Source: Phycisphaerae bacterium (GTDB lineage: Bacteria; Planctomycetota; Phycisphaerae; UBA1845; Fen-1342). From it: a DNA stretch of 35,369 nt. Below the pieces are notes generated by a model. The model was not told the DNA's origin, did no database searches, and saw only the letters and a program-made list of their open reading frames with translations. Position 1 is the first letter of the stretch. Every line of letters begins with the position of its first letter. Where the stretch lies: positions 1 to 35,369 of the forward strand of contig JASFQK010000053.1 in assembly GCA_050115495.1 (NCBI GenBank), read 5' to 3'. The position numbers were made by a program, and so were the translations under genes. This document shows, in pieces, positions 1 to 35,244 of this stretch.

Positions 1-125
1 GCGGACGCTGAATGGCGCGAAGCTTCTGCCGGACGTGATCGCCAGCGTCCGCTTCATCGACGGAGAAAAACCCGAGAAAGCCGCCGCCTGATCACGACGC
101 CATCAACGACTTTTGACAATAGCTC
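1..125 (+). mobile_element. IS256-family insertion sequence, 3' end (transposase C-terminus plus right terminal repeat), cut by contig edge
   Basis: Frame 2..91 reads RTLNGAKLLPDVIASVRFIDGEKPEKAAA*, resembling IS256 transposase C-termini. It is followed by ...ACTTTTGACAATAGCTC, an IS256-like end. Exact reverse complement of 35245-35369. Confidence 0.85.
2..91 (+). CDS. IS256-family transposase, partial C-terminus
   Basis: Manual translation: RTLNGAKLLPDVIASVRFIDGEKPEKAAA*. Confidence 0.8.
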   Translation, partial: RTLNGAKLLPDVIASVRFIDGEKPEKAAA

Positions 126-1357
126 GACGACAGGTCTATGCGAATCTCGACCGTCGAGGGCATGATCGGATAAGCGATCCGGCAGCGATACGCCTTGAAC
201 TTCTCGCCATCCCAGTTCAGCCGGTCGAATACATACTGGACCATTTCGGCGAAGCTCGGGACATCAGGCGTGGAGAGGGAAGCGGCGCCTTGCCCCACAT
301 AAGTGACGTGTTCCTCGGGCAAGGTTAAGTCGTCCATGACGTATTCGGCGTGGGGATAGGGCAGTTCCGCCCGGTGATCGCTATACACCGTCGATTTAGG
401 CTCCAGATCCGCCCACAGATCTTCTCGCACCAGCAAACAGAAAAGGAGGGATTCAGATGGGACGCGGACCATCGACATCACGCTGGCATGGAGATCATCA
501 GCGGAGCGATAGCGCGGCACGACGTCCTGGGCCCACCAACCGGTGACGCATGTGATTGCGCCTTTATTGCCGACGTCGGGGTTGGTTAATTCCCCCGTGA
601 GATATCCTCCCGCGCTGCGCACTCTGCGCAGTTGCGGCGGAGGCTGGCTGCAAAACCGGGGAATCAAAGCTAGGCCGATTTCTCCATCGTCCTGCGGAGT
701 GATCGACCGCGCCGAAACCGCAAACGGCGTGTCCGCATCATCGGTGATCATGGCGCGTGAGATGGTCAACGGCACGTTGCGGCGCAGCTGTCGCAGATTG
801 ACGTATCCGTCGAGCAAAGCGAGCGAAACCCTGGATGGATCCTCGCCGACCTCCATGAATCCGCAGCGGAGTTGCGTGGTCGCCTGCAGGCCCCACAAGT
901 GACGGTTCGCTCGAAAAGCGGCGCGGCGCTGCTGCAGGTTGAACTGACCGGCGTCGTCATTCCCCAACAGCGCGCTGAGCATTGAGTTGAAAGTGTTCCT
1001 GTCGCCCGCATGTATTTGGACGAGCCGGTCGAATTCGACCACGGCCGATTCGATGGCTTTCAGGAGCTCGTTTCGCACTCCGATGCGCGACGCGGCCTTG
1101 AGGAAATTCCGGATGTATGCGGCGCCTGGAACATGCGGGGCGGCAGCCAGTGGGCTGGTTGCGTGGGCAACCCTGAAGAGCCGCCAACTCAGGTTCATAT
1201 CTATTCCGGCGACCCTCTGCAGATCGGTGGCGCGGCTGATATTACCGGGCATATCGGCAATGGCGTTCGAGAAGGCGGCGCGCAGGCGGCCGAGGACGTC
1301 GACGGCATGCTCATCGAAAGGCCGCGAGTCGACCTTGGATTCTCGTATTTTCATCAT
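92..1357 (-). CDS. Uncharacterised ~400-aa family protein R1, putative HTH transcription regulator; last residues replaced by IS sequence
   Basis: AAGGA RBS before ATG. Family motifs RATDLQRVAGIDMNLSWRLF, HAGDR, WGLQA, FCSQP, RLNWD..KFKAYRCRIAYP shared with five paralogs. The tail SYCQKSLMAS is encoded by the IS end. Confidence 0.85.
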   Translation of the reverse strand: MMKIRESKVDSRPFDEHAVDVLGRLRAAFSNAIADMPGNISRATDLQRVAGIDMNLSWRLFRVAHATSPLAAAPHVPGAAYIRNFLKAASRIGVRNELLKAIESAVVEFDRLVQIHAGDRNTFNSMLSALLGNDDAGQFNLQQRRAAFRANRHLWGLQATTQLRCGFMEVGEDPSRVSLALLDGYVNLRQLRRNVPLTISRAMITDDADTPFAVSARSITPQDDGEIGLALIPRFCSQPPPQLRRVRSAGGYLTGELTNPDVGNKGAITCVTGWWAQDVVPRYRSADDLHASVMSMVRVPSESLLFCLLVREDLWADLEPKSTVYSDHRAELPYPHAEYVMDDLTLPEEHVTYVGQGAASLSTPDVPSFAEMVQYVFDRLNWDGEKFKAYRCRIAYPIMPSTVEIRIDLSSSYCQKSLMAS

Positions 1358-1374
1358 AGTTCATCCTTTACGTG

Positions 1375-1402
1375 ATTATGTGGGATTTCGCGTCTCGATC
1401 AA
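1375..1402 (-). promoter_or_regulatory. Putative sigma70 promoter for R1 (TTGATC-16-CATAAT)
   Basis: -35 at 1402-1397 and -10 at 1380-1375 on the minus strand, just upstream of the RBS. Confidence 0.45.
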
Positions 1403-1459
1403 GAGTGGATCTCGACAAAACTCTGAAAAAATTTCAGTACAAAATTCTGTGCAAAACCA

Positions 1460-1488
1460 TTGACCGCGACATGTCGATCAAATAGACT
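1460..1488 (+). promoter_or_regulatory. Putative sigma70 promoter for cargo gene 1 (TTGACC-17-TAGACT)
   Basis: Near-consensus hexamers with 17-nt spacer in an AT-rich intergenic region; palindrome CTGAAA-aaa-TTTCAG at 1423-1437. Confidence 0.65.
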
Positions 1489-1494
1489 GACTCC

Positions 1495-1620
1495 ATGGCT
1501 CGGAAAGCTCATTTCAACCTGTGGCGAGACGTAAAGGGCATGGTGCCCATCCAACACGAGGCAGGCGCAAGGGGACATCTGATCTCGTGTTGCGCGTCTT
1601 GCTGAGCTATCTGGAGCCGT
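1495..1620 (+). other. Candidate structured 5' leader RNA of cargo gene 1
   Basis: Nested stems 1495-1501/1614-1620, 1506-1511/1603-1608, 1524-1531/1595-1602, 1552-1560/1584-1592 and hairpin 1536-1548. Confidence 0.5.
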
Positions 1621-1699
1621 TTGGTGGAAGGGCGAAACGTCGATCTTGGTTTGTTCCCCGTACAGCCGGGAACGCTCGCTGGAAGGAGGCCTCTCGATC

Positions 1700-4027
1700 A
1701 TGCGAACATCATTGTTACTAAAGTGTCTGACCGCGGCCTGTCTGCTGGCCATCACGCCGCTTCTGTCGGCGGATGGACCGATGGATCCTCAGAGGGGCAC
1801 GCCATGGAATGACGACTGCAGTGCGGTCACTCCGGACCTGCTGGTCGCCAGCGGCGAGTTGATTTATCAAGGCGACAACACCGGAGCAACGTCCGATTGC
1901 TCGCTTTACGATGCTCCGGAGGTATGGCACGCGTTTACGATTGCGGAATGCATGGACGTGACGGTGGATTTCTGCGGCACGACACCGGCCTTCCCCCCTG
2001 GGCTTACCTCCCTGGTCGACGGTTGTCCGTGCAGCAGTGGTGTAGGATCCACGATGTATGATCGCGTCACCTGCGGTGACGGCAACACGACCCTCTACTT
2101 TTTCCGTCTTGAACCGGGCACTTATTATGTTCCGGTTCGGAGCCTCGCCTCCGAACAGCACCCGTACACGTTGACCATCCACGGAGAGGCTTGTCCCCCC
2201 ATACCGGTGAACGATGATTGCGGTAATGTCACTCCGGTCGACTTGAATCTCGGGGACGTCCTGACGTTCACCGGCACTACGTTAGGCGCGACGCAGACTT
2301 GCGATTGGACGGCTTGGCCGGGAGACGTCTGGGACGCGATCGTCACGACTGAACCGCTGGACATCACAATTGACTACTGCGACACGGATCCCGCGTTCGG
2401 TTACGTCGGCGACGCGTTGTTTCAGAGTTGTCCGTGCGACGGCGACAGTCGATTTCTGGCGGGATTGCGGGAATACGATTCCTGCAGCAACGGTAACGGG
2501 CGGATCCACTATTACAACGTGCCGGCGGGGACATGGTACATCCCCACATATTCGGGATTGCACGCGCTTGGGCTGTACGTCATGCACGTCAGCGCAACGG
2601 CGCCGACGGAGGTTCCTGAATGTCCGGAGGATTCGATATATTCGCAGAAACCGGAACCCACGGGAACGATGGTCACGGCGCCCACCAGCGCACATACAGA
2701 CTCGTTTGAATACCTGTGTCAGGACCGTTTCTCGAATCTCACGCACAGGATCGGATCCGTTAGCTGGTGGGGGTTCAATCTGCATTTCGACGGGGACTGG
2801 TACGAGTGTGATCCGTCCGGTGTGAACTTCAACGTGATTTTCTACGCCGATGACAACGGCATGCCCGGAGACCCGTTGTTCACGTTCAGCGATTTAACAC
2901 CGACGGTGACTCCAACTGACCTGTATTATGAGGACATGCGCCTGTACTACTTCGAGATCGCGGCGTTGCCGGAATGCGCATTCGTGGAGAATGGCTGGCT
3001 GTCGATTCAGAGTCAGCCGAATCCGAACGACTGCGCGTTTCTGTGGCTCGGTTCGTGGGTCGGCGACGGCTTCTCGTTGCAGAACGGCGGTACGTTGGGG
3101 ATCGATCTCGCCTACTGCCTGGGCGAGGGCGGTTGTCCAGTAATCCTTGGGGCCTGCTGTGACGAGTTGACCGGCATTTGCGTCGACTACGTCCCTTGGG
3201 ACGATTGCCTGGGCTGGGGACAGCAATTCACGATGGACACGCTCTGCGCCGAGCTTGATCCGGCGTGCGGCACGAGCACCGGCGCATGCTGCCACAACAG
3301 CGGGGATTGCGAGATCGTCACATTCAACGAGTGCGAGGCGTTGGACGGGACGTGGCTCGGCGCCGACACAACTTGCGACGAGTGTCCAACATACTGCAAT
3401 GCCGGCTCTTACAACTGCGCCGAGCATATCAGTTATGTGAAGTTGGGGGATGTGGACAACGCCTCCGGGTGCGGTTTGGACAGCGGCGGCATCCGCGGCT
3501 ATTCGAATTACACCAACATCACGTTCGACATGATTGCCGGTCAGAGCTATCAGTTCTCGGTTGCGAACGGTAGCGCGGATCAACCGGGTGACACCTGCCG
3601 GGCCTGGATCGACTGGAACCGCAATTACAGTTTTGATGACGCCGGGGAGGCGGTCATTATGACCGACTCGCCAGGCGTGGGGCCGTATACCGTGACGATC
3701 ACGCCGCCCTTGGACGCGGTGGGACTGACCCGAATGCGCGTTCGTATCGTGCGGTATGCCCCGGACGACGCTTGCAGGAGCTCCTACTTCGGCGAGGTGG
3801 AAGACTACACGATCGTCGTGACGCCGGGCCTGCATCCCGGCGATCTGAACTGCGACGGCGCCGTGAACAACTTCGACATCAGCCCGTTCGTGCTGGCGAT
3901 CACTGACGCGGCGGGCTATGCAGCGGCGTATCCGGAGTGCAATGTCCTCAACGCCGACTGCAATGGCGACGGCGAAGTAAACAACTTCGACATCGGCCCG
4001 TTCGTCGCCCTGATTACGGGCGGCTAG
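1700..4027 (+). CDS. Secreted Cys-rich multidomain protein with GEVED domain and C-terminal dockerin-like domain
   Basis: AAGGAGG RBS before ATG 1700; signal peptide; two NDDC-starting repeats; GACC Cys modules; WIDWN...TRMRVR...GEVEDY; duplicated Ca-loop GDLNCDGAVNNFDI / [14 protein letters not shown]. Confidence 0.85.
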   Translation: MRTSLLLKCLTAACLLAITPLLSADGPMDPQRGTPWNDDCSAVTPDLLVASGELIYQGDNTGATSDCSLYDAPEVWHAFTIAECMDVTVDFCGTTPAFPPGLTSLVDGCPCSSGVGSTMYDRVTCGDGNTTLYFFRLEPGTYYVPVRSLASEQHPYTLTIHGEACPPIPVNDDCGNVTPVDLNLGDVLTFTGTTLGATQTCDWTAWPGDVWDAIVTTEPLDITIDYCDTDPAFGYVGDALFQSCPCDGDSRFLAGLREYDSCSNGNGRIHYYNVPAGTWYIPTYSGLHALGLYVMHVSATAPTEVPECPEDSIYSQKPEPTGTMVTAPTSAHTDSFEYLCQDRFSNLTHRIGSVSWWGFNLHFDGDWYECDPSGVNFNVIFYADDNGMPGDPLFTFSDLTPTVTPTDLYYEDMRLYYFEIAALPECAFVENGWLSIQSQPNPNDCAFLWLGSWVGDGFSLQNGGTLGIDLAYCLGEGGCPVILGACCDELTGICVDYVPWDDCLGWGQQFTMDTLCAELDPACGTSTGACCHNSGDCEIVTFNECEALDGTWLGADTTCDECPTYCNAGSYNCAEHISYVKLGDVDNASGCGLDSGGIRGYSNYTNITFDMIAGQSYQFSVANGSADQPGDTCRAWIDWNRNYSFDDAGEAVIMTDSPGVGPYTVTITPPLDAVGLTRMRVRIVRYAPDDACRSSYFGEVEDYTIVVTPGLHPGDLNCDGAVNNFDISPFVLAITDAAGYAAAYPECNVLNADCNGDGEVNNFDIGPFVALITGG

Positions 4028-4057
4028 TCAGCGCTTGACCACGACACCTTGAAGTGT

Positions 4058-4365: not shown

Positions 4366-5577
4366 CTAGTCGCGTAACGGGTGAGTCAGACGCACTTCGC
4401 TCAGCATGATGGGGTATTCCAGGCGAAGGCGGTAGACGTCGAATCGCCCAGGATCCCAGCCGAGACGGTCGAACACGTGCGCCGTCATCTCCGCATACCG
4501 TGGGATCTCCGGCGTATGCAGCAGGCCACTGGCTCGGCCGAGATGCCGAACCGCCTCCCGCACGGGCACGTGGTCGCTCTTCTTCCGTGGGCCGTCAACC
4601 AAACCGCCATACACCGCCACCGTGTGCTCCAGCGGCCCGAACAGCTCATGGTCAATGAAATGATCGGCAATGAGCAGTTCCGACGGCGTGTGAATCCGCA
4701 CCACGTACGTAATACCTGTTTCGCCCCCACTTTGGCGAATGGGACCGCAACGCCGCATCACCTCCCCCGTAACACAACTGACCGCCCCAGTCCGGCCCAC
4801 GGGACCGGGCAGCAGTTCCCATTGGAGGGTACGGTCGCTCCGGTTGCACTCGATCCTTGGCCGCGGCGAACTCATAAACAACTCGGCGGTCGCCTCGTCC
4901 GGGTTCTCCACGTTGTAAATAGGCTCGATCGTGTACGCTGGAATCTCACCCCCCGCATCAGTCGTACACGTCGCCTTGCCCAACGGCCAACGCACGTCGG
5001 GACGCAGACGCTGCAAGCCGATCAGGCCGCCCAGCCTGGTGATGTCCAGTTGGCCGGACCTCTCTGAGAACCCCGTGAACGACGTCCGAAACTGCGTTTC
5101 CGCCGACGCGCCCCAGATGTAGCTATTGGCCTCAAACGCCAGGCGGCGGTGCACCACGTCGATCTCCGCCCGGCCTTCATGCGACTGCGCTGCCAGCAGC
5201 ATGTCGAGGCGCTTGCGGTTGCCGGCGTGCACGCGCTGGAGCTTTTGGTAGTCCGATAAGGCGGCTGTGGCCGTGTCGGTCAGAGCAGCGGGCACCCCCT
5301 GTTTCTGGGCCGCCCGCAGGAAGATCTTCGCGCCGCTGGTCCCCGGCACGTACCGGGCGGCCGCGAACGGATCCGAGCACCGAATGACGTTGAAGATCCG
5401 CCAACCCAGCCCCTTGTCGATCTGGAGCGCCTGGTGCAGTTCGCACGCCCGCGTGATGCGTTGAGGCAGGGCCCGAACGATCTCCGTGAAAGCCCCGCGG
5501 ACCCGTGCGATCGTCTCCGTGGTCTGCTCCTCGAAGGGGACCGCGGCTTCTTTAATGGTGGGCGTCTGTCTCAACAT
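4366..5577 (-). CDS. Uncharacterised family protein R2, putative HTH regulator, probably leaderless
   Basis: Motifs RACELHQALQIDKGLGWRIF, HAGNR, WGASA, RLGWDPGRFDVYRLRLEYP. Start set at ATG 5577, which lies 6 nt below a -10 box. Confidence 0.85.
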   Translation of the reverse strand: MLRQTPTIKEAAVPFEEQTTETIARVRGAFTEIVRALPQRITRACELHQALQIDKGLGWRIFNVIRCSDPFAAARYVPGTSGAKIFLRAAQKQGVPAALTDTATAALSDYQKLQRVHAGNRKRLDMLLAAQSHEGRAEIDVVHRRLAFEANSYIWGASAETQFRTSFTGFSERSGQLDITRLGGLIGLQRLRPDVRWPLGKATCTTDAGGEIPAYTIEPIYNVENPDEATAELFMSSPRPRIECNRSDRTLQWELLPGPVGRTGAVSCVTGEVMRRCGPIRQSGGETGITYVVRIHTPSELLIADHFIDHELFGPLEHTVAVYGGLVDGPRKKSDHVPVREAVRHLGRASGLLHTPEIPRYAEMTAHVFDRLGWDPGRFDVYRLRLEYPIMLSEVRLTHPLRD

Positions 5578-5583
5578 ACAGGA

Positions 5584-5612
5584 AGGATAAGGCCGTTCGC
5601 TCGCAATTTCAA
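5584..5612 (-). promoter_or_regulatory. Putative promoter for R2 (TTGAAA-17-TATCCT-6-ATG)
   Basis: -35 at 5612-5607, -10 at 5589-5584, ATG at 5577; no SD. Confidence 0.65.
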
Positions 5613-5631
5613 TGGATGTTTTAAAAAACGA

Positions 5632-5660
5632 TTGACAAAGACATCCGTTAGAACTATGGT
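5632..5660 (+). promoter_or_regulatory. Putative promoter for cargo gene 2 (TTGACA-17-TATGGT)
   Basis: Consensus -35 with 17-nt spacer; flanked by inverted GGATGT (5614-5619) / ACATCC (5641-5646). Confidence 0.7.
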
Positions 5661-5793: not shown

Positions 5794-6825
5794 ATGAGGC
5801 ATTTCCGAGTATTTCTGGCACTTGCGGTAGCCGCCGCCTGCATTAGCAGCGCGTCGGCGGAAGTGGCTGTTGCCACGGTCACCGTCGGCAACGCAGGGAA
5901 CGCCGGTGAATTGTCCGGATCCGGCGCCGGCGGCTACGGGCCGGACGGCATCTGCGGGGCGGTGGACTACGTGTACAGCATTGGCAAGCATGAAGTGACC
6001 GCCGGGCAGTACACGGAGTTCCTCAATGCCGTGGCGGCTACGGACGCGTATGGCCTGTACAACGTGTCCATGGAGACGCACCTTTACGGCTGCCAGATCA
6101 TGCGGACTGGCTCACCGGGCAGCTACACCTACAGCGTGGAGGAGGACTGGGCGAACCGCCCCGTGAACTTCGTGTCTTGGGGTGACGCAGCGCGTTTCAG
6201 CAACTGGCTGCACAATGGCCAACCGGTGGGATCGCAGGGGCTGGACACGACCGAGGACGGGGCATACTACCTCAACGGAGCGGTAACGGACACTGCGCTA
6301 ATGACCGTCAGGCGCGAAGCGGACTGGACTTGGGCGATTTCCACCGAGGACGAGTGGTACAAGGCGGCGTACCACAAGAACGACGGTGTGACGGGCAACT
6401 ACTTCGACTATCCGACCAGCAGCGACACCGCGCCGAGCAACCTTCTGATCGATCCCGACCCAGGCAACAACGCGACGTGCAAGGAGAACGGTGAGTACAC
6501 CATCGGCGAGCCGTATTACCGCACAGAGGTCGGTGCACACGAAAACTCCGACAGCCCGTACGGCACGTTTGATCAGGGCGGAAACGTGTGGGAGTGGAAC
6601 GAGACGATCGTGTCGAGTTGGGGGGTGGAAGAACGCGGCTTGCGGGGTGCGTCGTTCGACGAGCTCAGCGGCTGGCTGGCCGCGTCGTGCCGCTTCAGCT
6701 GCTACGCGACGAACGAGACCGAATGCCTCGGGTTCCGTGTCGCGGCGGTTCCTGAGCCAACTTCCCTAGCGCTACTGCTGTGTAGTATGGGAATGTTTGC
6801 CAGGCGAAGGGCGTTGCGAAGGTAG
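5794..6825 (+). CDS. FGE-sulfatase (SUMF1/EgtB/PvdO-like) domain protein with PEP-CTERM tail
   Basis: GAGGAG RBS; signal peptide; EVT..QY..FLNAVA, RPVNFVSWGDAARF.NWLHNGQ, EDEWYKAAY, GTFDQGGNVWEW, GFRV; tail VPEPTSLALLL...RRR. Confidence 0.9.
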   Translation: MRHFRVFLALAVAAACISSASAEVAVATVTVGNAGNAGELSGSGAGGYGPDGICGAVDYVYSIGKHEVTAGQYTEFLNAVAATDAYGLYNVSMETHLYGCQIMRTGSPGSYTYSVEEDWANRPVNFVSWGDAARFSNWLHNGQPVGSQGLDTTEDGAYYLNGAVTDTALMTVRREADWTWAISTEDEWYKAAYHKNDGVTGNYFDYPTSSDTAPSNLLIDPDPGNNATCKENGEYTIGEPYYRTEVGAHENSDSPYGTFDQGGNVWEWNETIVSSWGVEERGLRGASFDELSGWLAASCRFSCYATNETECLGFRVAAVPEPTSLALLLCSMGMFARRRALRR

Positions 6826-8778: not shown

Positions 8779-10053
8779 TCAGCGAGAGCCGTCTGTCTCC
8801 GGCGACAGATCGGCGGGGCATGGGGGTGGGACGAAGCGCTGGGCGACCGCCGTCGAAACGACGGGATACGGCATGCGCAGACGGTACACGTCGCACGCAT
8901 CGATATCCCAGCCAAGCTTGTCGAACGCGTAGCACATTATCTCTTCGTATCGAGGAATATCGACGGTGTGGACCACCGCTCGACCCAGTCCCAGGTGCTC
9001 GACGGTCTCAGGACAGGGCAGCATGCTGCAGGCCGGTCGGGACGTCGGGACGATCGACAACCACGACTTCCCGCCCAGTTCGCTGTATACCACCACCTCC
9101 GGGGCGATTCGTGAGAACAGCTCCCGGTCGACGTACAAGTCGTTAATCAACAATTCCACCGGCGTCTGCACGGAGAGGCCGAACTCGTGCGCAGGATTCT
9201 GTGCATCCGCATAGCGCGGGAACGCGTCGCCTGGCATGCCGCCCATGATGCAGGTGACGGCAGCCTTGTCGCCGACCGAGCTACCCACCCATTGGTCCTC
9301 TGCTTCGCCGTTCGGAAGGGCCGTGCGTTCGATCTGCTCCGATGAAACCGTGCTGAAATCGCCCAGCAGCGGTACTCCCGAGGGCAGCGCGGCGTCCGGA
9401 TCCAGGGGACGATAGGGGTTGCTGTGGAAAGTCCCGGCCTCGTCGTATATACCGGCCCTCGATTGCCAGAGCGTCCAGCGAATCTCCGGACGCACACGGC
9501 GCAGGCCGATGAGCCCCACCACGGACGCCGCCTGCATCAACCTGGGGTCTTCATGGCGGTAGAGCATCATGCTCACCAGCCGCACGCGGGCCTGGACACC
9601 CCACGTGAAACTAGCGCACTGAAACCCCGCCTTCCGGTAGGTCAGGTGCGTCTGCTGGTCGCTGTCCCGCGCCGATGCGCCCAGCATGAGCTCCAACGCC
9701 GCCCGACTGCCGGCGTGATCGGCGATGATCCGTCGATACTCGCCCACGGCGGCCCGCACGCGGTCCAGGACGTCCTCCGGCGCAGCCTTGTCCCGCGCCG
9801 CTTCGAGGAAGATGTTCACCCCTTCGTCGCCGGGAATGTACTGCGCGGAGGCAAGCGGATCCTTTGAATCCAGAATGCGCATGATCTTCCACGCGAGCTT
9901 CTGCTGCACGCCAAGCACGCGCGTTAGGTCACGTGGCCGCCGCACATCCCCCGGCAGGGCGCTGAGGACGTGCGCAAAGGCACTCCTGATTCGCAGGAGC
10001 ACCTGCGTGGCCTCGTCCAATAATCCCGCGCCTTTCGTCCCCGACATCATCAT
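8779..10053 (-). CDS. Uncharacterised family protein R3, putative HTH regulator
   Basis: Motifs RRPRDLTRVLGVQQKLAWKI, HAGSR, WGVQA, GLRRVRP, KLGWD...DVYRLRMPYP. Start at the MMM codons chosen by alignment to paralogs; 10173 or 10164 are alternatives. Confidence 0.85.
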   Translation of the reverse strand: MMMSGTKGAGLLDEATQVLLRIRSAFAHVLSALPGDVRRPRDLTRVLGVQQKLAWKIMRILDSKDPLASAQYIPGDEGVNIFLEAARDKAAPEDVLDRVRAAVGEYRRIIADHAGSRAALELMLGASARDSDQQTHLTYRKAGFQCASFTWGVQARVRLVSMMLYRHEDPRLMQAASVVGLIGLRRVRPEIRWTLWQSRAGIYDEAGTFHSNPYRPLDPDAALPSGVPLLGDFSTVSSEQIERTALPNGEAEDQWVGSSVGDKAAVTCIMGGMPGDAFPRYADAQNPAHEFGLSVQTPVELLINDLYVDRELFSRIAPEVVVYSELGGKSWLSIVPTSRPACSMLPCPETVEHLGLGRAVVHTVDIPRYEEIMCYAFDKLGWDIDACDVYRLRMPYPVVSTAVAQRFVPPPCPADLSPETDGSR

Positions 10054-10228
10054 CTCCGCCCGGCTGAACTCAACATAGTCGTCGCCGTCGGCCCCGAACG
10101 CCACCGGGCTCCACGGAATGGCACGCAAAACGTGCGTCTTCGCGGGTGGTATACACGCGTCCATTGTACACATTCGCTCCTCGGAAACAAGGATGGAATT
10201 TACGCCGGAATTAAATCCGAGAAATCGC

Positions 10229-10257
10229 TTGGCGTAATGAAACCGACAGAGTATGAT
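10229..10257 (+). promoter_or_regulatory. Putative promoter for cargo gene 3 (TTGGCG-17-TATGAT)
   Basis: 17-nt spacer; inverted TTACGCC (10200-10206) / GGCGTAA (10231-10237) overlaps the -35. Confidence 0.55.
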
Positions 10258-22842: not shown

Positions 22843-22858
22843 CGCCCCGGCACCCACC

Positions 22859-26507: not shown

Positions 26508-27485
26508 CTACCGCCTTCGAATCACGCCCACGATACCGAGCACCAGGAGCGCGAGCGTGCCAGGCTCAGGAACCTCGCAGACACGAAACCCCGTGGTGTT
26601 TTTCCCGATCGTCGGGGAGCCGTAGTAGCGGTACGACGCGCCCAGGTGACCGTCAAGGCCGCCGTACCACCCGCCCCGCGTGCCGCGATACGACCCGTCG
26701 GAAAGGATCGCTTCGTTCCACTCCCATACATTCCCACCCTGGTCGAACGTGCCATACGGGCTGGAGGAGTTCTCGAATTCACCGACTTCGGTGCGGTAGT
26801 ACGGCGAGCCGATGGTGTAAGAGAAATTGGCGTTGTTGCCCGGATCGGGATCGATCAGGCCGTTACTCGGGGCGGTGTCGCTGTTCGTCGGGTAGTCGAA
26901 GTAATTGCCGGTCACACCGTCATTCATGTGGTACGCCGCCTTGTACCACTCATCCTCTGACGGGATCACCCACGTCGCGTCAGCTTCACGCGTAATCGCC
27001 TGTAGTTCGGAGTGGCTCATCGCCCCGTTGAGGAAGTACGACCCATCTTCCGTCGTTCCCAGGCCTTGCGCCCCCGTCGGCTGGCCGTTGTGCAGCCAGT
27101 TGGTGAAGCGCACCGCGTCGCCCCACGACACGTAGTTCACCGGACGGTTAGCCCAGTCGTCCGCCACGGCGTACGTGTAACTGCCGGCAGAACCGCTCCG
27201 CACGATCATGCAGGCGTACGTGCCCGACGACATGGCCGTGTCGTACAGACCGTACGTGTCGGTCGCGGCCACGGCGTTGAGAAACGCTGTGTACTGACTC
27301 GCCGTCACCTCGTACGTGCCGATGTTGTACGTGTAGTCGACGGCCCCGTATCCGTCGCCGTGTGTGTCGTTCGGGTTCCCCGGGTTGCCCACGGCGACCG
27401 TGTCGATCACCACGTTCGCCCCCGCTCCGGCGGCCCAAGTGCAAACCACGACCACGGCCAGTAAGGTTCCAATTCGCTTCAACAT
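26508..27485 (-). CDS. FGE-sulfatase domain protein with PEP-CTERM tail (paralog of 5794-6825)
   Basis: AAGGAG RBS before ATG 27485; signal peptide; same FGE motifs; VPEPGTLALLVLGIVGVIRRR. Confidence 0.9.
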   Translation of the reverse strand: MLKRIGTLLAVVVVCTWAAGAGANVVIDTVAVGNPGNPNDTHGDGYGAVDYTYNIGTYEVTASQYTAFLNAVAATDTYGLYDTAMSSGTYACMIVRSGSAGSYTYAVADDWANRPVNYVSWGDAVRFTNWLHNGQPTGAQGLGTTEDGSYFLNGAMSHSELQAITREADATWVIPSEDEWYKAAYHMNDGVTGNYFDYPTNSDTAPSNGLIDPDPGNNANFSYTIGSPYYRTEVGEFENSSSPYGTFDQGGNVWEWNEAILSDGSYRGTRGGWYGGLDGHLGASYRYYGSPTIGKNTTGFRVCEVPEPGTLALLVLGIVGVIRRR

Positions 27486-27697: not shown

Positions 27698-27726
27698 ACT
27701 ATATCGAGCCCAATTGTCGTGGTCAA
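27698..27726 (-). promoter_or_regulatory. Putative promoter for cargo operon 4 (TTGACC-17-TATAGT)
   Basis: Near-consensus hexamers; palindrome ATGTTTT-tg-AAAACAT at 27738-27753 upstream. Confidence 0.7.
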
Positions 27727-27767
27727 TATCTTCCGTGATGTTTTTGAAAACATATGTACCGCTGTCA

Positions 27768-27796
27768 TTGCCAACCTCGGTCGCCTGTGGTACTCT
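27768..27796 (+). promoter_or_regulatory. Putative promoter for R4 (TTGCCA-17-TACTCT, extended -10 TG)
   Basis: Back-to-back with the cargo promoter; in-frame ATGs at 27800 and 27806. Confidence 0.6.
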
Positions 27797-27805: not shown

Positions 27806-29053
27806 ATGGCGAACAGAGATCATACGGTTATGGGACGCTCGGGCACTTTCAAGGCGGATGTCTCGGAAGTGATGACCCGCCTGCGCAGTGTGCTGGCTCA
27901 GTTAATCGCGGCCGTGCCGGACGACATCAGCAAGGGCGCCGATCTGCACCGCTCGTTCCACCTCGACCGCACCCTGAGCTGGAAAGTGTTCAAGGTCGCC
28001 CACGCCGCCGATCCCATTGCGGCGGGGGCCCACGTCCCCAGCCCGACGAGCATGGAGACGCTGTTTAAGGCCGCCCGAAAACGCGGCGTCCCCGAGGCGC
28101 TGATCGAGTCGGCGGCGCGGGCCGCAGCGGACTTCGAGGATCTCGTCGCGGCCCACGCGGACGACCGGGCCGCCTTTGACTCGATGGTCAGCGCATTGGC
28201 CCGCGACGACTCCTGCGACCAGATCGACCTCGTCCACCGCCGTCTCGGCTTTCGCGCCCAACGCCACATTCTGGGGGTGCAGGCCCGGACGCAGGTCAAG
28301 CTCCTCGCGCTCCAGCCAAGCCAGGACCCGCGATGGCTGGATGCCATCCTTGTCCAGGGCTTCGTCGGCCTGCGTCGCCTGCGGGGGGACGCCCCCTTCA
28401 TCATCTCCTACTCCGGGGCACGTGATGACGAGGGAGCACCCGTGCAGGTGCAGCGTCAGCCGCTGGGGCTGGCGAGTGACAGCGACGGGATGTCCCTGAT
28501 CGCCGAGTATTGCAGCCAGCCGCTGCCAGAGTTCCAGATTTCCCGGGTGGGAGACGGCTTCCTGCGCGGGGAGGTCCTGACCCGCGACGTGGGCAACCGT
28601 GCAGCCGTAACCTGCTTTGAGGGGCATGTCGTCTCGCCCGGAATGCCTCGCTACCGAGAGAAGGGCAACGATGTTGTCGCGAGTGTGGTAGTGGTGCGGA
28701 ACCCGTGTGAGATGCTCGTGGTGGATCTGCTGGTGCCGTCCACATTGTATGGTCCCGTGAAACCCAGTGCATACGTGAGGACGGACCACGTAGGCGACTC
28801 ATCTCGGGACCTGGTCACGAGGTGCGATTACCGCCTGCCGGGCAGGCCGGCGGTCCACCATCTTGGACGGAGCCCAGTTGTGCTCCACACGCCCGATGTG
28901 CCGCGCTACGCCGAGTTGGGATATGAGGTCCTTCGGCGCGCCGGTTGGAACGCCGAGGACTTCGACGTCTACCGCTGCCAGATCGAGTATCCGGTCATGC
29001 CCTCTTCTGTTGTCGTGCAGTTCGATCTTCCGGAAGCCCCCGCGACGCAGTAG
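27806..29053 (+). CDS. Uncharacterised family protein R4, putative HTH regulator
   Basis: Motifs KGADLHRSFHLDRTLSWKVF, HADDR, LGVQA, GLRRLR, YCSQPLP, GWN...FDVYRCQIEYP; exact start uncertain (27800, 27806 or 27830). Confidence 0.85.
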   Translation: MANRDHTVMGRSGTFKADVSEVMTRLRSVLAQLIAAVPDDISKGADLHRSFHLDRTLSWKVFKVAHAADPIAAGAHVPSPTSMETLFKAARKRGVPEALIESAARAAADFEDLVAAHADDRAAFDSMVSALARDDSCDQIDLVHRRLGFRAQRHILGVQARTQVKLLALQPSQDPRWLDAILVQGFVGLRRLRGDAPFIISYSGARDDEGAPVQVQRQPLGLASDSDGMSLIAEYCSQPLPEFQISRVGDGFLRGEVLTRDVGNRAAVTCFEGHVVSPGMPRYREKGNDVVASVVVVRNPCEMLVVDLLVPSTLYGPVKPSAYVRTDHVGDSSRDLVTRCDYRLPGRPAVHHLGRSPVVLHTPDVPRYAELGYEVLRRAGWNAEDFDVYRCQIEYPVMPSSVVVQFDLPEAPATQ

Positions 29054-29546
29054 TGATCCCGGTCGCGGCTTCTTGCGCGAGCAGCACCGCGTGTCCCGCA
29101 CATTAAGACGATGCCGGCGCGGATCGCCCCGCCCCGGCTCCCTTGGCGGCGGGGGCGCAATTCCAGCGCCGGCATCGGTGCCTTCCAAATCCCCCCGCAA
29201 TCGGCCGGCCGACACGCCGCCACTTCATCGTGACCATCATGTCGGCGAAACATGGTGCCCTGGCACGCGGATCGACCGTGACGATCCGCGCACCAGGGCG
29301 AGGAGGCATGCAGGACTGCGACCTCGCGCCCCCCCTCGCGCGAGGCAGTCCACCTGCTACGGTTCGACGAGCAGGCCAACGAACGGCGAAATGTCGAAGT
29401 TGTTCACTTCGCCGTCGTCGTTGCAGTCGGCGTTGAGGATGTCGCACTCCGGATACGCCGCGGCGTACCCCGTCGGATCCGTGATCGCCAGCACGAACGG
29501 CGAGATGTCGAAGTTGTTCACTTCGCCGTCGCAGTTCATGTCGCCC
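29052..29546. repeat. Direct repeat, copy 2 (lacks about 55 nt present in copy 1)
   Basis: Aligns to 22859-23411; the missing segment lies between two GTCCCGC micro-repeats (about 22902 and 22957) in copy 1. Confidence 0.92.
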
Positions 29547-31099
29547 ACAAGCGTTTCCTCCACCCACGGCAGCAGCCGCAACGCGATCGGAGTGCTGCTC
29601 GTGTAGAGGTTTGTGCCGTTCCGGCGGCTGTAACCGCCCGAGATCCCGGTCGAGGAGCAGTACAGACCCGAGTGGAAGTAGTCATTGCCCTGAAGATGGA
29701 GCCAGTACCGGCCCTCGGGCAGGGTCACGTCGACCGGCGTCTTATGCCACGAATAGCTGTACCGGAACGCCGGCATCGTCCAGCTTCCCAGAGACTGTGA
29801 TTCGTCGAACATGTTGCCCGATCCGTCATCCGGGTGAATCGTGGCGGTAAAGCCCTGGGGGTTGTAGCATTCGGTGCGGCCGTTCAACCAGATCTCGCCG
29901 ACACGCCAACCGCCGGACGCCACATCGAACGGCTGGAAGACCTCCCAGACGTAGACCGAACCCGTATCGCCCATCGCCCTGAGCGTGCCGATGCTGGGAT
30001 CCACGTCCTGGTCGAGCAGGAACGTCGGCGGCGTGCACGGATCATCCTCGCACTCATCCGGGATGCTGTTCTCGTTGCAGTCGAGGCTGGTGCCGTCGGC
30101 GATGTCCAGGCGATCCGCGATGCCGTTGTTGTTGCAGTCTTCGAGGGCCTGGTCGTAACGCGCGTCCAGCGTCACCGCCACGCAAGACGCCCCGGAGGGC
30201 ACCTCGTAGATCATGGTCGGATCGCTGCCGTCCAGATTGAACTTCGTGATGTTCTTGACGCCGTCATTCACGATCTCGTCGGCGAGGTAGATGGCGCCGT
30301 GCGTGTAGTCAATGGCGAAGTCGCCCAGACCCGACGACGTGAACTCGTCCGGCGTGCCGTCATAGAGGACTGTGAAGTTCTCGTTGTTGAAGTCCACGCG
30401 CACCAGGCAGTCGCTGATGGTGTCGCTGTCGATCCAGTAGATGTGCCGGTTGGCGACGTCGACTTGCACGCGCGTCCCGGTCGACGCCCCGTCGGCGATG
30501 GTCTTGGCCACGAACGGTGGACCGTCCAGGTTCATGCGTTGCACCTTGCCGTCGACGATGAAGTAGAGCCAGCCGTTCACCGCGTCGACCGTGGGGCGCC
30601 CCATACGGGTCGAACTGGAGTAGTCCGGAGCGCGGTAGACCTCTTCCACCGCTCCGCTGCCGTCCATCGGCCGCCGGCGGATAATGCCGGCGTTGTTGCC
30701 CTGCGAGGGCGCCTCGGTCCAGTACACATAGCCGCCCACCGGATCCAGGGTGCAGCCGCGCGCGTACTTCAGGCTGGTCTGGATCGTCTCTTGACCGCTG
30801 CCGTCCGGGTTGGCGCGGCGGACGTAGCCCGGGCTCGAGCCGTGCGACCAGTAGACGCGGCCCGTCTCGTCGATATCGAGCCCCACGACCAGCCAGTCAC
30901 CGGCCGGAAACGGATCGGTCGTGAACAGGAGCTGCGGGTCGCTGCCGTCGAGGCCCATCGTGACGATCCGACCATCCTGATACTGAGTCAGACCGGCGTA
31001 GAGCTGCGTCTGGGCCGCGCCGATTGCGGCTCCCAGGCATGCGACGGCCACCACGGCCGCAATTCGCCACTGCAATTGTCGTGAATCTCCTCGGTGCAT
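29357..31099 (-). CDS. Secreted protein with YWTD/LDL-receptor-class-B-like beta-propeller, DCN.NGI.D repeats and C-terminal dockerin-like domain
   Basis: GGAGG RBS before ATG 31099; signal peptide; repeats RVYWS, YVYWTE, WLYF, HIYWID, AIYLAD with R.NLDG-like turns; dockerin almost identical to that of 23222-26377. Confidence 0.85.
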   Translation of the reverse strand: MHRGDSRQLQWRIAAVVAVACLGAAIGAAQTQLYAGLTQYQDGRIVTMGLDGSDPQLLFTTDPFPAGDWLVVGLDIDETGRVYWSHGSSPGYVRRANPDGSGQETIQTSLKYARGCTLDPVGGYVYWTEAPSQGNNAGIIRRRPMDGSGAVEEVYRAPDYSSSTRMGRPTVDAVNGWLYFIVDGKVQRMNLDGPPFVAKTIADGASTGTRVQVDVANRHIYWIDSDTISDCLVRVDFNNENFTVLYDGTPDEFTSSGLGDFAIDYTHGAIYLADEIVNDGVKNITKFNLDGSDPTMIYEVPSGASCVAVTLDARYDQALEDCNNNGIADRLDIADGTSLDCNENSIPDECEDDPCTPPTFLLDQDVDPSIGTLRAMGDTGSVYVWEVFQPFDVASGGWRVGEIWLNGRTECYNPQGFTATIHPDDGSGNMFDESQSLGSWTMPAFRYSYSWHKTPVDVTLPEGRYWLHLQGNDYFHSGLYCSSTGISGGYSRRNGTNLYTSSTPIALRLLPWVEETLVGDMNCDGEVNNFDISPFVLAITDPTGYAAAYPECDILNADCNDDGEVNNFDISPFVGLLVEP

Positions 31100-31314
31100 T
31101 CTCAGAACCTCCGTCATCTAATAGAAGCTGAAACAAACACGCGACCGCGGCGAGAATTGACGCGAGCGGACAGTGTTCCGCCGCGCGATCCTGCGAATTT
31201 GGAGCAAGCACCCACGTCCCACTCCCACAACTACGGGTGGGCCCCAGCCGGGAGGGGTCACGGGCCGCCGCCGGCTCGCTGACCCGATAAGGGAGGCCAC
31301 CCGCCAATAAGTCC

Positions 31315-31343
31315 ACCTTAACGATCGGTCATATCGGGGTCAA
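31315..31343 (-). promoter_or_regulatory. Putative promoter for cargo gene 5 (TTGACC-17-TAAGGT)
   Basis: 17-nt spacer; two TTCGCGAA palindromes upstream at 31350-31357 and 31386-31393. Confidence 0.65.
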
Positions 31344-31419
31344 TGCTTTTTCGCGAATTCGTTAAAGAGTTCAAGAAAGGATTGTTTCGCGAAATCTCGC
31401 ACGAGTTCCATCTTCAAGC

Positions 31420-31448: not shown

Positions 31449-31451
31449 CTT

Positions 31452-32858
31452 ATGAGCGTTTGGTACGCCCCAGCGCGGCCCCGAGGGCCTATATGCGACT
31501 CAAGGAGTCTCGTATGGGTCGAAGTGACGGCCCCTGTTTATCGGGCCTCAGGAGAACCGGGCCCGTTCGTTGCCGGCGGCGGCCATACACGGGCCACTAT
31601 CCCCGACGGTGCCCATTTGGACAGCAACGAGACAGCCCCGGCCAGGTCGCACACGTTCGAGCTCGAGGCGACGCGCGTCCTCCAGCAGTTGCGGACGGCG
31701 CTCGCTCGGGTCGTGGCCGGCATTCCGGGGCACGTCTCCAAGCCCGCCGAGCTGCAGCGCTCGCTCAACGTCGACATCAACCTGAGCTGCAAGGTCTTCC
31801 GGATCGTCAACGCGGCCAGTCCGCTGGACGCCGGGCCGCACGTACCCGGACTCAGCGGCTTGCGCACCTTCCTCAAAGCAGCCCAGCGTGTCGGCGTCGC
31901 GGAGTCGCTCGTGAGCGCCGCCATGGCCGCCAGTGGCGAGTTCAATCGTCTGGTGGCCAACCACGCCGGCGACCGCCCTGCCTTCGACACGATGATCAGT
32001 GCGTTCACCGACTCGCCGGACGCCGCCCAGATCGGCTTGCAGCATCGCCGGGCCCTCTTCCGCGGCCACCGGCACGTTCTCGGCGTTCAGGCCCGCGTTC
32101 AAATGCGGAGCTTCTTCCTCCAGCCGGCGGAAGACGACCGCATGCTGGACGTGGTCTCGGTCGCCGGCGTCCTGGGCCTGCGCCAGTTGTGCCCCGGGGC
32201 GCCGCTGGTCATGGCGCGCTGGAACGTCAGCGGGGACGACGGCAATCTGCGGGAGGTGCAGTGCGAACCGCTCGATTCGTCGGCCGAAGCGGGTCTGGTC
32301 CCGAAGTTCTGCAGCCAGCCGTTGCCGCAGTACCGGACCATGGAGCCCATGCCCGGCATCATGTGCGGTGAGCTGGTCAGTAACGGCCTCGGCAAGCAAG
32401 CGGCCATCACGTGCGTGCAAAGCCACGTGCACCGCGCCGCCATTCCGCGCTACCGCGGGGAAGCGGACCGAGTCGGCGCGTACGCCGCGAGAGTCCGCAT
32501 ACCGAGTGAGGTGCTCCTGGTCGACGTGCTCGCCCGCGAGGACGTGTACGGGTCACAGAAGCCGATCGGCTACACGGTTTCGGAGCACCAGGGCGAGATC
32601 ATGGCGGTGTCAGCCTGCGCAGAGTGGCTCCGGCTGAAACCCTACGAATCGGTCGCATATCTTGGGAGGGGACCGTCCGTGCTATACACACCGGACTTCC
32701 CGCGCTCCCCGGAGCTGGGCGCCCACGTCTTTGAGCGAATGGGCTGGGACCCGGAGCGTTTCGATGTCTATCGCTGCCGCGTCGAGTATCCCATCATGCC
32801 GTCCACCGTCACGATTCAATTCGACCTGATCGACCCACCCACGGCGTCGGCCGAATAA
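31452..32858 (+). CDS. Uncharacterised family protein R5, putative HTH regulator
   Basis: Motifs KPAELQRSLNVDINLSCKVF, HAGDR, LGVQA, FCSQPLP, RMGWDPERFDVYRCRVEYP; true start may be TTG 31617 by alignment to paralogs. Confidence 0.85.
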   Translation: MSVWYAPARPRGPICDSRSLVWVEVTAPVYRASGEPGPFVAGGGHTRATIPDGAHLDSNETAPARSHTFELEATRVLQQLRTALARVVAGIPGHVSKPAELQRSLNVDINLSCKVFRIVNAASPLDAGPHVPGLSGLRTFLKAAQRVGVAESLVSAAMAASGEFNRLVANHAGDRPAFDTMISAFTDSPDAAQIGLQHRRALFRGHRHVLGVQARVQMRSFFLQPAEDDRMLDVVSVAGVLGLRQLCPGAPLVMARWNVSGDDGNLREVQCEPLDSSAEAGLVPKFCSQPLPQYRTMEPMPGIMCGELVSNGLGKQAAITCVQSHVHRAAIPRYRGEADRVGAYAARVRIPSEVLLVDVLAREDVYGSQKPIGYTVSEHQGEIMAVSACAEWLRLKPYESVAYLGRGPSVLYTPDFPRSPELGAHVFERMGWDPERFDVYRCRVEYPIMPSTVTIQFDLIDPPTASAE

Positions 32859-33137
32859 CGTTCCTATCCGACGAAACGACGCTGAGCCGCTCATCGCCCC
32901 CCCCACCTTCCCCGACGGTCGTGGCACCCGAGCCCCCGACAAGGTGTCTCGCGTGATACCCGCATCACGGAATTCCTGCACCGGGTGTCGCGAATCGCCC
33001 GATAATCTCCCCGTCATGGTTGATTCGAATCGCGCACCGAATCGGCAACGGAATGGTGGCGGGAGACGACCGTCGCCGCGTCGGCCGCGCACGCGTGCAT
33101 CGGCCTCATCCCGCGCGAGGCCAATCGGCATGTGTTA

Positions 33138-33151
33138 ATATCCTGGATATG
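33138..33151. promoter_or_regulatory. Candidate operator ATATCCTGGATATG upstream of R6
   Basis: Palindromic; 13/14 identical to 34649-34662. Confidence 0.6.
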
Positions 33152-33200
33152 TTTATGATTGCAGACTTCCGTTCTTTCCAGCGTGCGTTATAATGCCTCC

Positions 33201-34520
33201 ATGAGCGAAACCGCCATCAACCGCCCTGCCGAACCTCTTCAGGAACGTCTCAGCCGCGTCGCTGAGCGGTTCCGGGACGCTCTCAACGCGGTCATTGATC
33301 AGGTTCCCGTTGCCATCAAACGGCCCGCCGAGTTCCAGCGCGTTCTGCGGCTGGACCGCAACCTCTCCAGCCGCCTACTCCGGGCTGCCCGCCTGCACGA
33401 CCCGCTCGCCACGCTGCACCGCATGCCCGGCCCACACGGTGTACGGCTGCTCCTCGCCGCGGCCATCAAGGCCGGCGTCGACCGTGTAACCATCGCGGAA
33501 GCCGAACACGCCGTCACCGAACTTGAACGCGTCGTCGCCACCGAAGTTGGCACATGGCAGGAACTCAACGCCGCCATCAGCGGCTGGCTCCCCAACGCCC
33601 GCGCCGAATTCGAGTTGACCAATCGTCAAACGGCTTACCGCGCCATCAGCAACCTCCGCGGCGTTACGGCGGATGTCGAGCTCGCCGTAACGATCGTTCA
33701 TCCGGCGGCCGATGACGCGGATTGGGTGGACCGGGCCGGGATTACCGGCATGTGCCGAATGAAGCGTCTGCGGCCCGGCGCTGTCATGAGACTGCTGCAT
33801 GGGCGGGCAGTTTCCGCAACACCGGGGGTGGCGGAGCACCACGAACAGGTTCTCGTTGCCGGCTGGAGCCCCCTTACGCCGCTGCCGAGTAACCGCCAAC
33901 GTTTCTCGATCGATGGCAAACCCATCGACTTCACGCATGGCGCTCCGCTACTGAAGGAGTTCAGCACCTCCCCCTCCCCCGAGTTAGACCTGCACGTCGC
34001 CGGCAGCTTGTCGCAGTACGTGTTGCCCGGCGACTGCGTGGGCTGCGGCTCGTTGGCCGATTTGCTGTTCGCCGACGTCATGCCCAGACGCTACCCGGCT
34101 CACGCCAGTGCCAGCACCCGTCCCATAACCCCCGGCGTCGTGGTTCACATTCCCGTCAAAGTGCTCGTCGCAGACGTACTGGTTCACAGGGACGTGTGGC
34201 GCGGCGTGCAGCCCGAGCTACGGGCCTTCGACACGACGGGCCACGGCCTGGCCGATCCGACCGACCCCAGTTGCAAAGTGTATCGCGTCGACGTCCTCGA
34301 CCCCATTCTGGACATGGGCACGCGGCTGGATGCGTTTCGCGTAAAGGAGATCGGGGGTTACGTCGACATGATCCGCCACGTCTGTGGAAAGCTGGGTTGG
34401 GACTCCACGGCCTTCCACGGCTACCGCTTCCGGATCGAATACCCGCTGTACGGGACCCAATTCTGCATGATCTTCACTCCTCCACCGCTGGCTCCGCCCA
34501 GCACTGGGACCCCTGCCTAA
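33201..34520 (+). CDS. Uncharacterised family protein R6 (most divergent paralog), probably leaderless
   Basis: TATAAT (33189-33194) then 6 nt then ATG; motifs KRPAEFQRVLRLDRNLSSRL, LRGVTA, MKRLRPG, KLGWDSTAFHGYRFRIEYP. Confidence 0.85.
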   Translation: MSETAINRPAEPLQERLSRVAERFRDALNAVIDQVPVAIKRPAEFQRVLRLDRNLSSRLLRAARLHDPLATLHRMPGPHGVRLLLAAAIKAGVDRVTIAEAEHAVTELERVVATEVGTWQELNAAISGWLPNARAEFELTNRQTAYRAISNLRGVTADVELAVTIVHPAADDADWVDRAGITGMCRMKRLRPGAVMRLLHGRAVSATPGVAEHHEQVLVAGWSPLTPLPSNRQRFSIDGKPIDFTHGAPLLKEFSTSPSPELDLHVAGSLSQYVLPGDCVGCGSLADLLFADVMPRRYPAHASASTRPITPGVVVHIPVKVLVADVLVHRDVWRGVQPELRAFDTTGHGLADPTDPSCKVYRVDVLDPILDMGTRLDAFRVKEIGGYVDMIRHVCGKLGWDSTAFHGYRFRIEYPLYGTQFCMIFTPPPLAPPSTGTPA

Positions 34521-34644
34521 CGAAGACGGCTGTCGCTGAGCGCGAGGGGCGGATCAGTTCCGCTGCGCATCCACGGCAATCCGGGACGCCCCGGCCAATC
34601 GCCGAGCCCCACAGATAAACACCGTTTCAATCCGAAATGCTCCG

Positions 34645-34692
34645 AATCATATCGTGGATATGATTGACTATGGTTTGACGTGATGCTATCCT
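34645..34692 (+). promoter_or_regulatory. Operator-like palindrome AATCATATC-gtg-GATATGATT abutting promoter TTGACT-17-TATCCT
   Basis: Perfect 9-bp inverted repeat at 34645-34665; -35 at 34664-34669; extended -10 at 34687-34692. Confidence 0.7.
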
Positions 34693-34840
34693 CGCCTTCA
34701 TTGGTGGAGGTTGGGCGTACGCGTGCGGAGCCCCCGCCACCTGAGGAAGAGGAGAGGACGTCATGAAGTGCATCGTTGGTTCAGACCGCGGGGCAGTCGT
34801 ACACCCCCGCAATCAACATCGTGAGAGGAGGAACGAGAAA

Positions 34841-35244
34841 ATGATCATCAGACAGACCATGACCCTACTGGCAATTCTCACGCTCGTCAGCGGGGCCACA
34901 GCCAGCACGGTGCTGTATGACAACTTCGGCCCTGGAGACGAGTACAACCACCAAGTCGGCTGGACGATAGGCTTGGGGGGGTCAGAGGACCACATCGAGG
35001 CGGGCCCGGGCTTCAGGATGAACATGGGTGGAGACTACTACCTCGATGCCATCGACGCTCCCATCCAATTCTACGAGTATGTCCCAGGTGCCCCAAACGA
35101 AGTGACGCTGAGCGTCTACGACACGGCCGAAGATGCCTTCGAACCGGGCGACGTCCTTGAGACGTTATTTACAACAGACCTGACTACGAACCCGTACGCC
35201 CCGCCCAGGAGGTTCGAGTTCTCCGGCACGACCCTCCTCGAGGA
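34841..35244 (+). pseudogene. Exported protein (N-terminus typical of PEP-CTERM-type proteins) truncated by IS256 insertion
   Basis: AGGAGG RBS; signal peptide; VLYDNFGPGD.Y...GW start; the frame runs into the IS end and stops at 35278 with IS-derived SYCQKSLMAS. Confidence 0.7.

Follow-up and report, generated by a model that had tools for sequence, protein, structure and literature searches.

An Unnamed Family of Putative Local Regulators Paired with Exported-Protein Genes in a Phycisphaerae Genome

The window analyzed here is a 35,369-bp stretch of DNA that makes up the whole of contig C53 (JASFQK010000053.1) of the 5.97-Mb genome of a Phycisphaerae bacterium. It carries six genes, R1 to R6, of an unnamed protein family, each next to a gene for an exported protein that we call its partner or cargo. 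It is very probable that the family proteins are local, sequence-specific regulators, of whichever sign, since conserved palindromic boxes at the cargo promoters follow the lineage of the regulator. An earlier note on this DNA had proposed an undescribed family of one-component regulators with an N-terminal helix-turn-helix (HTH) and a C-terminal beta-rich sensor. The pairing of genes, the matched boxes and a predicted two-domain fold support that proposal in part; the HTH is suggestive and was not proven by fold searches.

The Family and Its Distribution

The open reading frames of R1 (92..1357, minus strand), R2 (4366..5577, minus), R3 (8779..10053, minus, with a start possibly further upstream), R4 (27806..29053, plus), R5 (31452..32858, plus, the family domain beginning near 31617) and R6 (33201..34520, plus, a member of the second main subfamily) are all open, encode 403-468 residues and have no internal stops. 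They align end to end at 24-42% pairwise identity (BLASTP E 1e-25 to 1e-114), and the six diverged paralogs described earlier are thus real. The ordered motifs said to be shared among them hold as consensus patterns; strictly written, each is found in only one to four of the six proteins. Recent local tandem duplication was considered as the origin of the cluster and rejected, because the six copies fall in at least four clades (FastTree, 95 rows).

Searches of the source genome in all six frames (tblastn and an iterated profile) gave 57 full-length copies, plus a single fragment, spread over 28 contigs; the median identity in the C-terminal domain is 28%. An unfiltered profile search of clusters at 50% identity gave 3,036 family representatives at E ≤ 0.001 and 1,745 at 1e-30. 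Atlas clusters of the family are mostly from Planctomycetota, and all ten clusters looked up were unnamed or 'hypothetical'; named homologs are likewise 'hypothetical' and come from Phycisphaerae, Planctomycetes or unclassed bacteria. Members were found in 20 of 301 genomes of the phylum (a lower bound, as six candidates were scored per genome), in 21 of 24 genomes of the same taxonomic family (1-11 matches each) and in all six of the same genus (2-5 each). Because the relatives sampled carry 0-11 members, the 57 copies represent a lineage-specific expansion.

The earlier note could not assign the family to a named Pfam, and profile searches gave no name either: none of the six window members matched Pfam or NCBIfam, and the family as a whole had no match in the Pfam, NCBIfam or PHROGs libraries. 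HTH_3-clan profiles matched 0 of 81 members at E ≤ 0.1, and the best hit in PDB sequences was MogR at E 0.94, which is chance level. PADLOC gave a single weak and unrelated Cmr5 match among the six window members, and tblastn of plasmid and phage collections gave no family match. Literature searches at the level of listings and the starts of abstracts, mostly outside subscription journals, did not bring up a description of the family. It is a candidate for a large unnamed regulator family whose domain pairing is without description in the literature searched.

Pairing with Genes for Exported Proteins

Genes were called with a custom gene caller (4,370 genes), and dockerin and PEP-CTERM tags were assigned by regular expressions. 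Among the 56 copies that have an upstream gene, 48 are divergent from it. A divergent dockerin or PEP-CTERM neighbor is present at 41 of the 56, whereas 72 of the 4,240 genes outside the family have one (Fisher p 6e-56), and the enrichment persists among divergent pairs only (41/48 vs. 72/1,242, p 1e-39), p-values that treat as independent paralogs that are not. Nine copies precede their partner on the same strand (operon-type), and seven of these form a clade with three foreign copies of the same arrangement.

The arrangement described earlier for the window stands: R1 to R5 are head-to-head with a gene having a signal-peptide-like N-terminus, and R6 lies on the same strand, 320 bp upstream of one. 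The R1 partner (1700..4027, plus) has a signal-peptide-like start, a GEVED domain (Pfam E 2e-16) and a C-terminal dockerin (Dockerin_1 E 0.0025, below cut-off). The R2 partner (5794..6825, plus) and the R4 partner (26508..27485, minus) both combine an FGE-sulfatase-like domain with PEP-CTERM (Pfam, NCBIfam). Pairs have been reshuffled: these two partners share 62% identity, against 33% for R2 and R4, which belong to different clades and have different boxes. The R3 partner (10715..15004, plus) is an exported, Cys-rich protein of 1429 residues that ends in a variant dockerin-like tail, and the R5 partner (29357..31117, minus) is an exported protein with weak LDL-receptor-B-like repeats and a dockerin tail. 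Pfam missed both tails; that of the R5 partner is 95% identical over 62 residues to a Pfam-scored dockerin. The R6 partner (34841..35244, plus) has a signal-peptide-like start, and its C-terminal tag is not visible because an insertion sequence (IS) truncates it.

The prediction that profile searches of other genomes would reveal exported divergent neighbors was borne out. By a crude signal-peptide heuristic, such a neighbor is found at 24 of 38 copies in 19 distant genomes (36 regions for 43 foreign matches, two copies being at contig ends) and at 27 of 40 loci in close relatives (the 40 regions being those with the better scores among the same-family and same-genus matches). Applied to the copies in the source genome, the same heuristic gives 40 of 56; for random genes it gives 40 of 292, and for divergent control genes 109 of 300. 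By eye, the distant partners have the kind of tail that their lineage uses, be it a PEP-CTERM variant, a dockerin of another type or some different C-terminal domain. Flippase-like, BioY and thiamine-synthase neighbors are exceptions to the exported partner.

Several further observations concern the partners. The genome encodes at least 12 paralogs of the FGE-sulfatase-like PEP-CTERM proteins, at 50-64% identity, and several of these are located beside regulators of different clades. A small PEP-CTERM protein in the window (15178..15705, plus) belongs to a family of six (the others at C2:142891-143421, C5:153782-154300, C6:77656-78042, C8:47395-47946 and C37:22982-23524). Five of the six directly follow a gene whose product ends in a variant dockerin-like tail, and five of the six follow a regulator's partner; the family has no Pfam or PDB sequence match, and is a candidate for a cohesin-like anchor for the variant dockerin subtype. 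In distant Planctomycetota, the partners at nine loci (L006, L007, L012, L013, L014, L018, L019, L034 and L035) share a C-terminal domain, aromatic-Q ... SN-[AG]-[LIV], unnamed in Pfam, which is probably a lineage-specific sorting or anchoring domain. At L001 and L004, family copies lie within polysaccharide-synthesis-like clusters (flippase-like gene, epimerase, ABC transporter), a context in which the targets of the family may include surface glycans.

Predicted Fold and Dimer

R4 was chosen for modeling. Its AlphaFold2 model (predicted local distance difference test, pLDDT, 92) has a helical domain at residues 15-156 and a beta domain at 158-407. The helical domain contains two HTH-like helices (44-51 and 55-65, within an HTH-like stretch 44-65), with a net charge of +3.25 over residues 40-66. 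An HTH-like domain is thus predicted, as the earlier note had expected; a Foldseek search with the N-terminal domain returned nothing at E ≤ 0.001, which is not evidence of a new fold, and the model is at most suggestive of an N-terminal HTH. The beta domain matches the aminopeptidase-N/VIT-type fold at 6-10% identity, and the HExxH zinc motif is present in none of the 57 copies.

The R4 homodimer scored 0.73 against 0.00 for the best control; of 30 solved homodimers 20 attain the mark used, as does 1 of 23 monomers. At least 87% of the contacts are common to the runs, and pLDDT is at least 84. The predicted interface involves the HAGDR and RxxFR motifs, and the HTH is not listed in it. No membrane segment was found by a crude test, the highest 19-residue Kyte-Doolittle mean among the 57 copies being 1.76 and most being below 1.6. 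Judged from sequence, the proteins are likely cytoplasmic.

Promoters and Candidate Boxes

The intergenic gaps contain back-to-back, near-consensus promoter sequences of the sigma70 type, the only consensus used in our scans. A cargo-side promoter scoring at least 9.5 is present at 42 of 57 loci, compared with 438 of 2,343 controls, and the regulator start codon lies 4-8 nt after its −10 in 25 of 48 cases, compared with 58 of 422. Three 151-base contigs from one metatranscriptome with a small share (0.08) match R4 and its partner with no mismatches at a depth of 2-3; they possibly derive from DNA and are too thin for a statement on transcription.

Candidate boxes were located at each of the six window loci. 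At R1, a candidate array of 3-4 boxes with a pitch of ~12 bp (1417..1459, from repeat and palindrome scans) lies between the predicted R1 promoter (TTGATC-16-CATAAT, 1375..1402, minus) and the predicted cargo promoter (TTGACC-17-TAGACT, 1460..1488, plus), and ends at the −35 of the latter. At R2 (5584..5660), the −35 elements of R2 (5612-5607) and of its cargo (5632-5637) are 19 bp apart, with candidate boxes at ~5606-5631; the R2 start codon is 6 nt past the predicted −10 (leaderless-type), and the candidate box also occurs at the two closest R2 paralogs, on contigs C58 and C13. The R3 gap (10163..10257) has candidate boxes at 10191-10228, between the −35 of R3 (10190-10185) and that of the cargo (10229-10234). 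In the R4 gap (27698..27796) they lie at 27727-27767, between the cargo −35 (27726-27721, minus) and the R4 −35 (27768-27773). The R5 boxes lie upstream of the −35 (31343-31338) of the predicted cargo promoter (31315..31400, minus). At R6, whose start is 6 nt past its −10 (33189-33194), a palindromic box, ATATC-N3-GATAT, lies upstream of its own promoter (33138..33150), and a second copy (34649-34661, 12 of 13 positions identical) abuts the cargo promoter TTGACT-17-TATCCT (34647..34692, plus).

Repeats were analyzed at 40 loci (promoter score at least 9.5, gap 10-232), 17 of the 57 being dropped. The DNA before the cargo −35 repeats itself within a locus at lag 12 (z 6.3), lag 24 (z 4.3) and lag 11 (z 3.1), as judged by cross-locus shuffles that preserve positional composition. 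The lag-12 excess is 0.102, vs. 0.006 ± 0.013 in control promoters (0 of 500 draws); a second control, cargo genes without a regulator, was set aside as it included some family-linked promoters. At 20 of 41 loci in relatives, the same repeat is seen at lag 11 (z 5.5) and lag 22 (z 4.2). Periodicity was not significant in distant genomes, where eight promoters were usable.

The repeat units are imperfect palindromes with an 11-12-bp pitch, with centers ~10 and ~21 bp upstream of the −35 hexamer (near −45 and −56); they end 0-2 bp from it. The best palindrome scores 6.0 vs. 5.05 ± 0.10 of 8 pairs (0 of 200 shuffles); a fixed palindrome center gives a weak signal, as centers vary by a few bases. 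The proximal box keeps a near-constant phase to the −35 across clades and both gene arrangements. In the nine operon-type copies, a TTTC-N-GAAA-like box, a pattern written after inspecting them, precedes (six) or overlaps (three) the regulator's own −35. A single family-wide motif sought by expectation maximization yields no more than an A/T skeleton in the source genome and a TTTC-N-GAAA-like motif in distant genomes.

Boxes Follow Regulator Lineages

Boxes are linked to regulators by three tests, the first of them in relatives of the source genome. Twenty of the 41 relatives' loci have a closest paralog at least 45% identical and scoring promoters on both sides; they correspond to 10 distinct paralogs. 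In these, the 24 bp before the −35 match the box of the closest paralog at 0.57, where random paralogs give 0.39 (0 of 5,000), and the closest paralog has a median rank of 2 of 42. The −35/−10 spacer of the same loci is at background (0.35 vs. 0.356). The cognate excess is highest from 16 to 2 bp upstream of the −35 and ends at the −35. Relatives of one paralog keep the box with either dockerin or PEP-CTERM cargo. By these comparisons, the candidate box is conserved with the regulator lineage and not with the cargo, as a cognate operator at a target promoter would be.

The 13-mer pattern of the R6 box has two hits in 5.97 Mb, at R6's own promoter and at that of its target. ATATC-N3-GATAT occurs four times genome-wide: two around R6 (own and target promoter), one at another paralog's cargo promoter and one unrelated; R6's closest paralog has ATGTC-N3-GACAT. 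Copies of boxes are also present at second cargo promoters, differing at 2, 2 and 7 of 30 positions. At C61:331-400, a PEP-CTERM gene has two copies of the box of a regulator on C22, with no regulator in the 330 bp upstream, where the contig starts; this gene is a possible target in trans of the C22 regulator.

Proposed Mechanism and Alternatives

Models in which the family proteins regulate the neighboring gene can be drawn with either sign. In the one that we put at about even chances, a cytoplasmic homodimer would bind the paired palindromic boxes through its N-terminal HTH, with dimers occupying adjacent boxes just upstream of the neighbor's −35, and would switch the exported-protein gene on through contact with RNA polymerase from the −45 box. 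The same array may serve autoregulation of the often leaderless, low-expressed regulator gene. A ligand or partner at the beta domain would control the protein, most likely a peptide or small molecule, a guess from the fold neighbors.

The proteins may instead be repressors that act on the same boxes, the dimer array covering the UP-element region and the −35 edge of an intrinsically strong promoter until a ligand of the beta domain releases it. Repression is less probable, yet a serious contender. It is favored because cargo promoters are strong, being near-consensus, and their upstream region is AT-rich (A+T 0.62 vs. 0.35 in controls). The closeness of the boxes to the −35 also speaks for it, as does their overlap with the −35 of the regulator gene itself in loci of the 19-bp-gap class and in three of nine operon-type copies; moreover, Cro/C1-type proteins are mostly repressors. 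These points count against activation. Constant phase to the −35 is usual for polymerase-touching activators, and a repressor accounts less readily for the nearly constant phase of the proximal box, or for a cognate conservation that is absent from the −35/−10 spacer. Activation is slightly favored because of this fixed phase and because conservation stops at the −35, as for the C.AhdI site at −44.

Other observations weigh against regulation of either sign. The mean A/T skeleton of the boxes resembles an UP element, and within the genome the relation between box similarity and the recognition helix is marginal after relatedness is removed (partial r 0.086, p 0.05). The converse of the pairing is weak, in that a family gene lies directly upstream of 37 of 135 PEP-CTERM and 14 of 196 dockerin genes. 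The earlier picture of one regulator per surface protein was overstated. Most tagged genes have no family gene. The boxes could be UP elements or bind some other factor, with the family protein serving the exported protein as a cytoplasmic partner that does not bind DNA, such as a chaperone, a maturation factor or an immunity factor. We consider this improbable. The boxes track the regulator lineage with either kind of cargo, a rank of 2 of 42 is beyond what a generic UP element can produce, and a dedicated partner protein fits poorly both with the reshuffled R2 and R4 pairs and with the many tagged genes that have no family gene.

It is very improbable that the family genes encode mobility or recombination proteins of small cassettes carrying exported genes, with the boxes as end or attachment sites: the tenfold higher copy number of this one genome (57, against 2-5 in six genomes of the same genus) and the reshuffling of cargo and regulator would fit, but there is no recombinase or transposase family match (Pfam, NCBIfam, HTH_3-clan, PHROGs) and no match in phage or plasmid collections, the copies are old by their C-domain divergence, the boxes are phased to the −35 within the promoter region and do not mark module ends, and the IS at contig ends is a separate element.

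Comparison with Known Systems

One-component regulators of the Cro/C1 type (XRE, HTH_3 clan), such as MmyB-type Caur_2278 (3pxp), HigA and BldD, are near parallels; the family has no profile match to them. Its helical domain, at ~140 residues, has extra helices that form the predicted dimer interface, and its C-terminal domain is an aminopeptidase-N/VIT-type beta sandwich and not a PAS, cupin or peptidase domain. With M1 aminopeptidases, only the non-catalytic N-terminal beta domain (aminopeptidase-N/VIT/ribophorin I) matches, here predicted to be fused to an HTH-like domain in a cytoplasmic protein.

Controller (C) proteins of restriction-modification systems are small and HTH-only. The family resembles them in having an often leaderless-type regulator gene, paired inverted-repeat candidate boxes at a predicted sigma70-type promoter and its own box for each protein. 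C.AhdI is made from a leaderless mRNA, has two adjacent inverted-repeat sites at a sigma70 promoter, 15 bp apart at −44 and −29, with the activating site centered at −44, and is autoregulated (PMC2275141). The family differs in size (~410 residues), box pitch (11-12 bp), exported-protein targets and dozens of copies per genome, and is not a member. Its neighbors, in the source genome as in distant and close relatives, encode exported proteins and are not restriction-modification genes.

Control of PEP-CTERM genes through an upstream motif has been described for PrsK/PrsR/PrsT, a global two-component, sigma-54 system of Proteobacteria, with further PEP-CTERM regulators and motifs still to be discovered (Haft et al., 2006; PMC1569441). 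The present family, by contrast, would comprise many local sigma70-type regulators with private boxes. No PrsR ortholog was found in this genome, which is 92% complete, the best match scoring 393.5 bits vs. the TIGR02915 cut-off of 502.6. On this comparison, the family would act in the manner of local one-component regulators, with a promoter logic that resembles that of C proteins, outside the XRE profile families, the C proteins and PrsK/PrsR.

Other Features of the Window

At either end of the contig lies the right end of a single multicopy IS (1..125, plus, comprising the 3' end of a transposase-like frame and the terminus; and 35245..35369, minus), which lies outside the module, is found at 20 other contig ends (22 in total) and is presumably IS256-like. 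It has inserted in the 3' end of R1 and replaced the last 2-3 codons (an R1 ortholog, P0001, 95% identical, ends 2-3 residues past the junction), and it cuts the R6 partner after ~135 codons.

Two exported genes without a regulator of their own lie behind partners: the small PEP-CTERM gene at 15178-15705, likely co-transcribed with the R3 partner, and a gene for a dockerin-tailed protein (23222..26377, minus), likely the second gene of the R4-linked unit. No promoter was found in either gap by the sigma70-type scan. A protein of 900-990 residues (20107-23079), with only a weak HEAT-repeat match, is unrelated to the module. Similar non-coding stretches follow dockerin genes near 23100-23220 and 29100-29350.

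Implications

Control of PEP-CTERM genes that lack the sigma-54 PrsR motif was left open by Haft et al. (2006), and for some of these genes in Planctomycetota the family offers a concrete candidate regulator. The predicted boxes make a direct test simple, as short DNA fragments and one purified protein suffice. In its fullest form, the model is of a new Planctomycetota family of more than 3,000 clusters that joins an HTH to an aminopeptidase-N/VIT-type peptide-sensing domain, with 57 near-orthogonal regulator-operator pairs per cell serving as autoregulated switches, each for its own exported protein; cells would display different combinations of surface proteins, and a cargo would change its switch by moving behind another box. 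As a whole this remains speculative and rather unlikely. With 57 paralogs that each have a box of their own, the family lends itself to studies of the diversification of HTH specificity, and it might also supply orthogonal switches. In uncultured planctomycetes, the boxes could be used to assign regulons, including unlinked targets.

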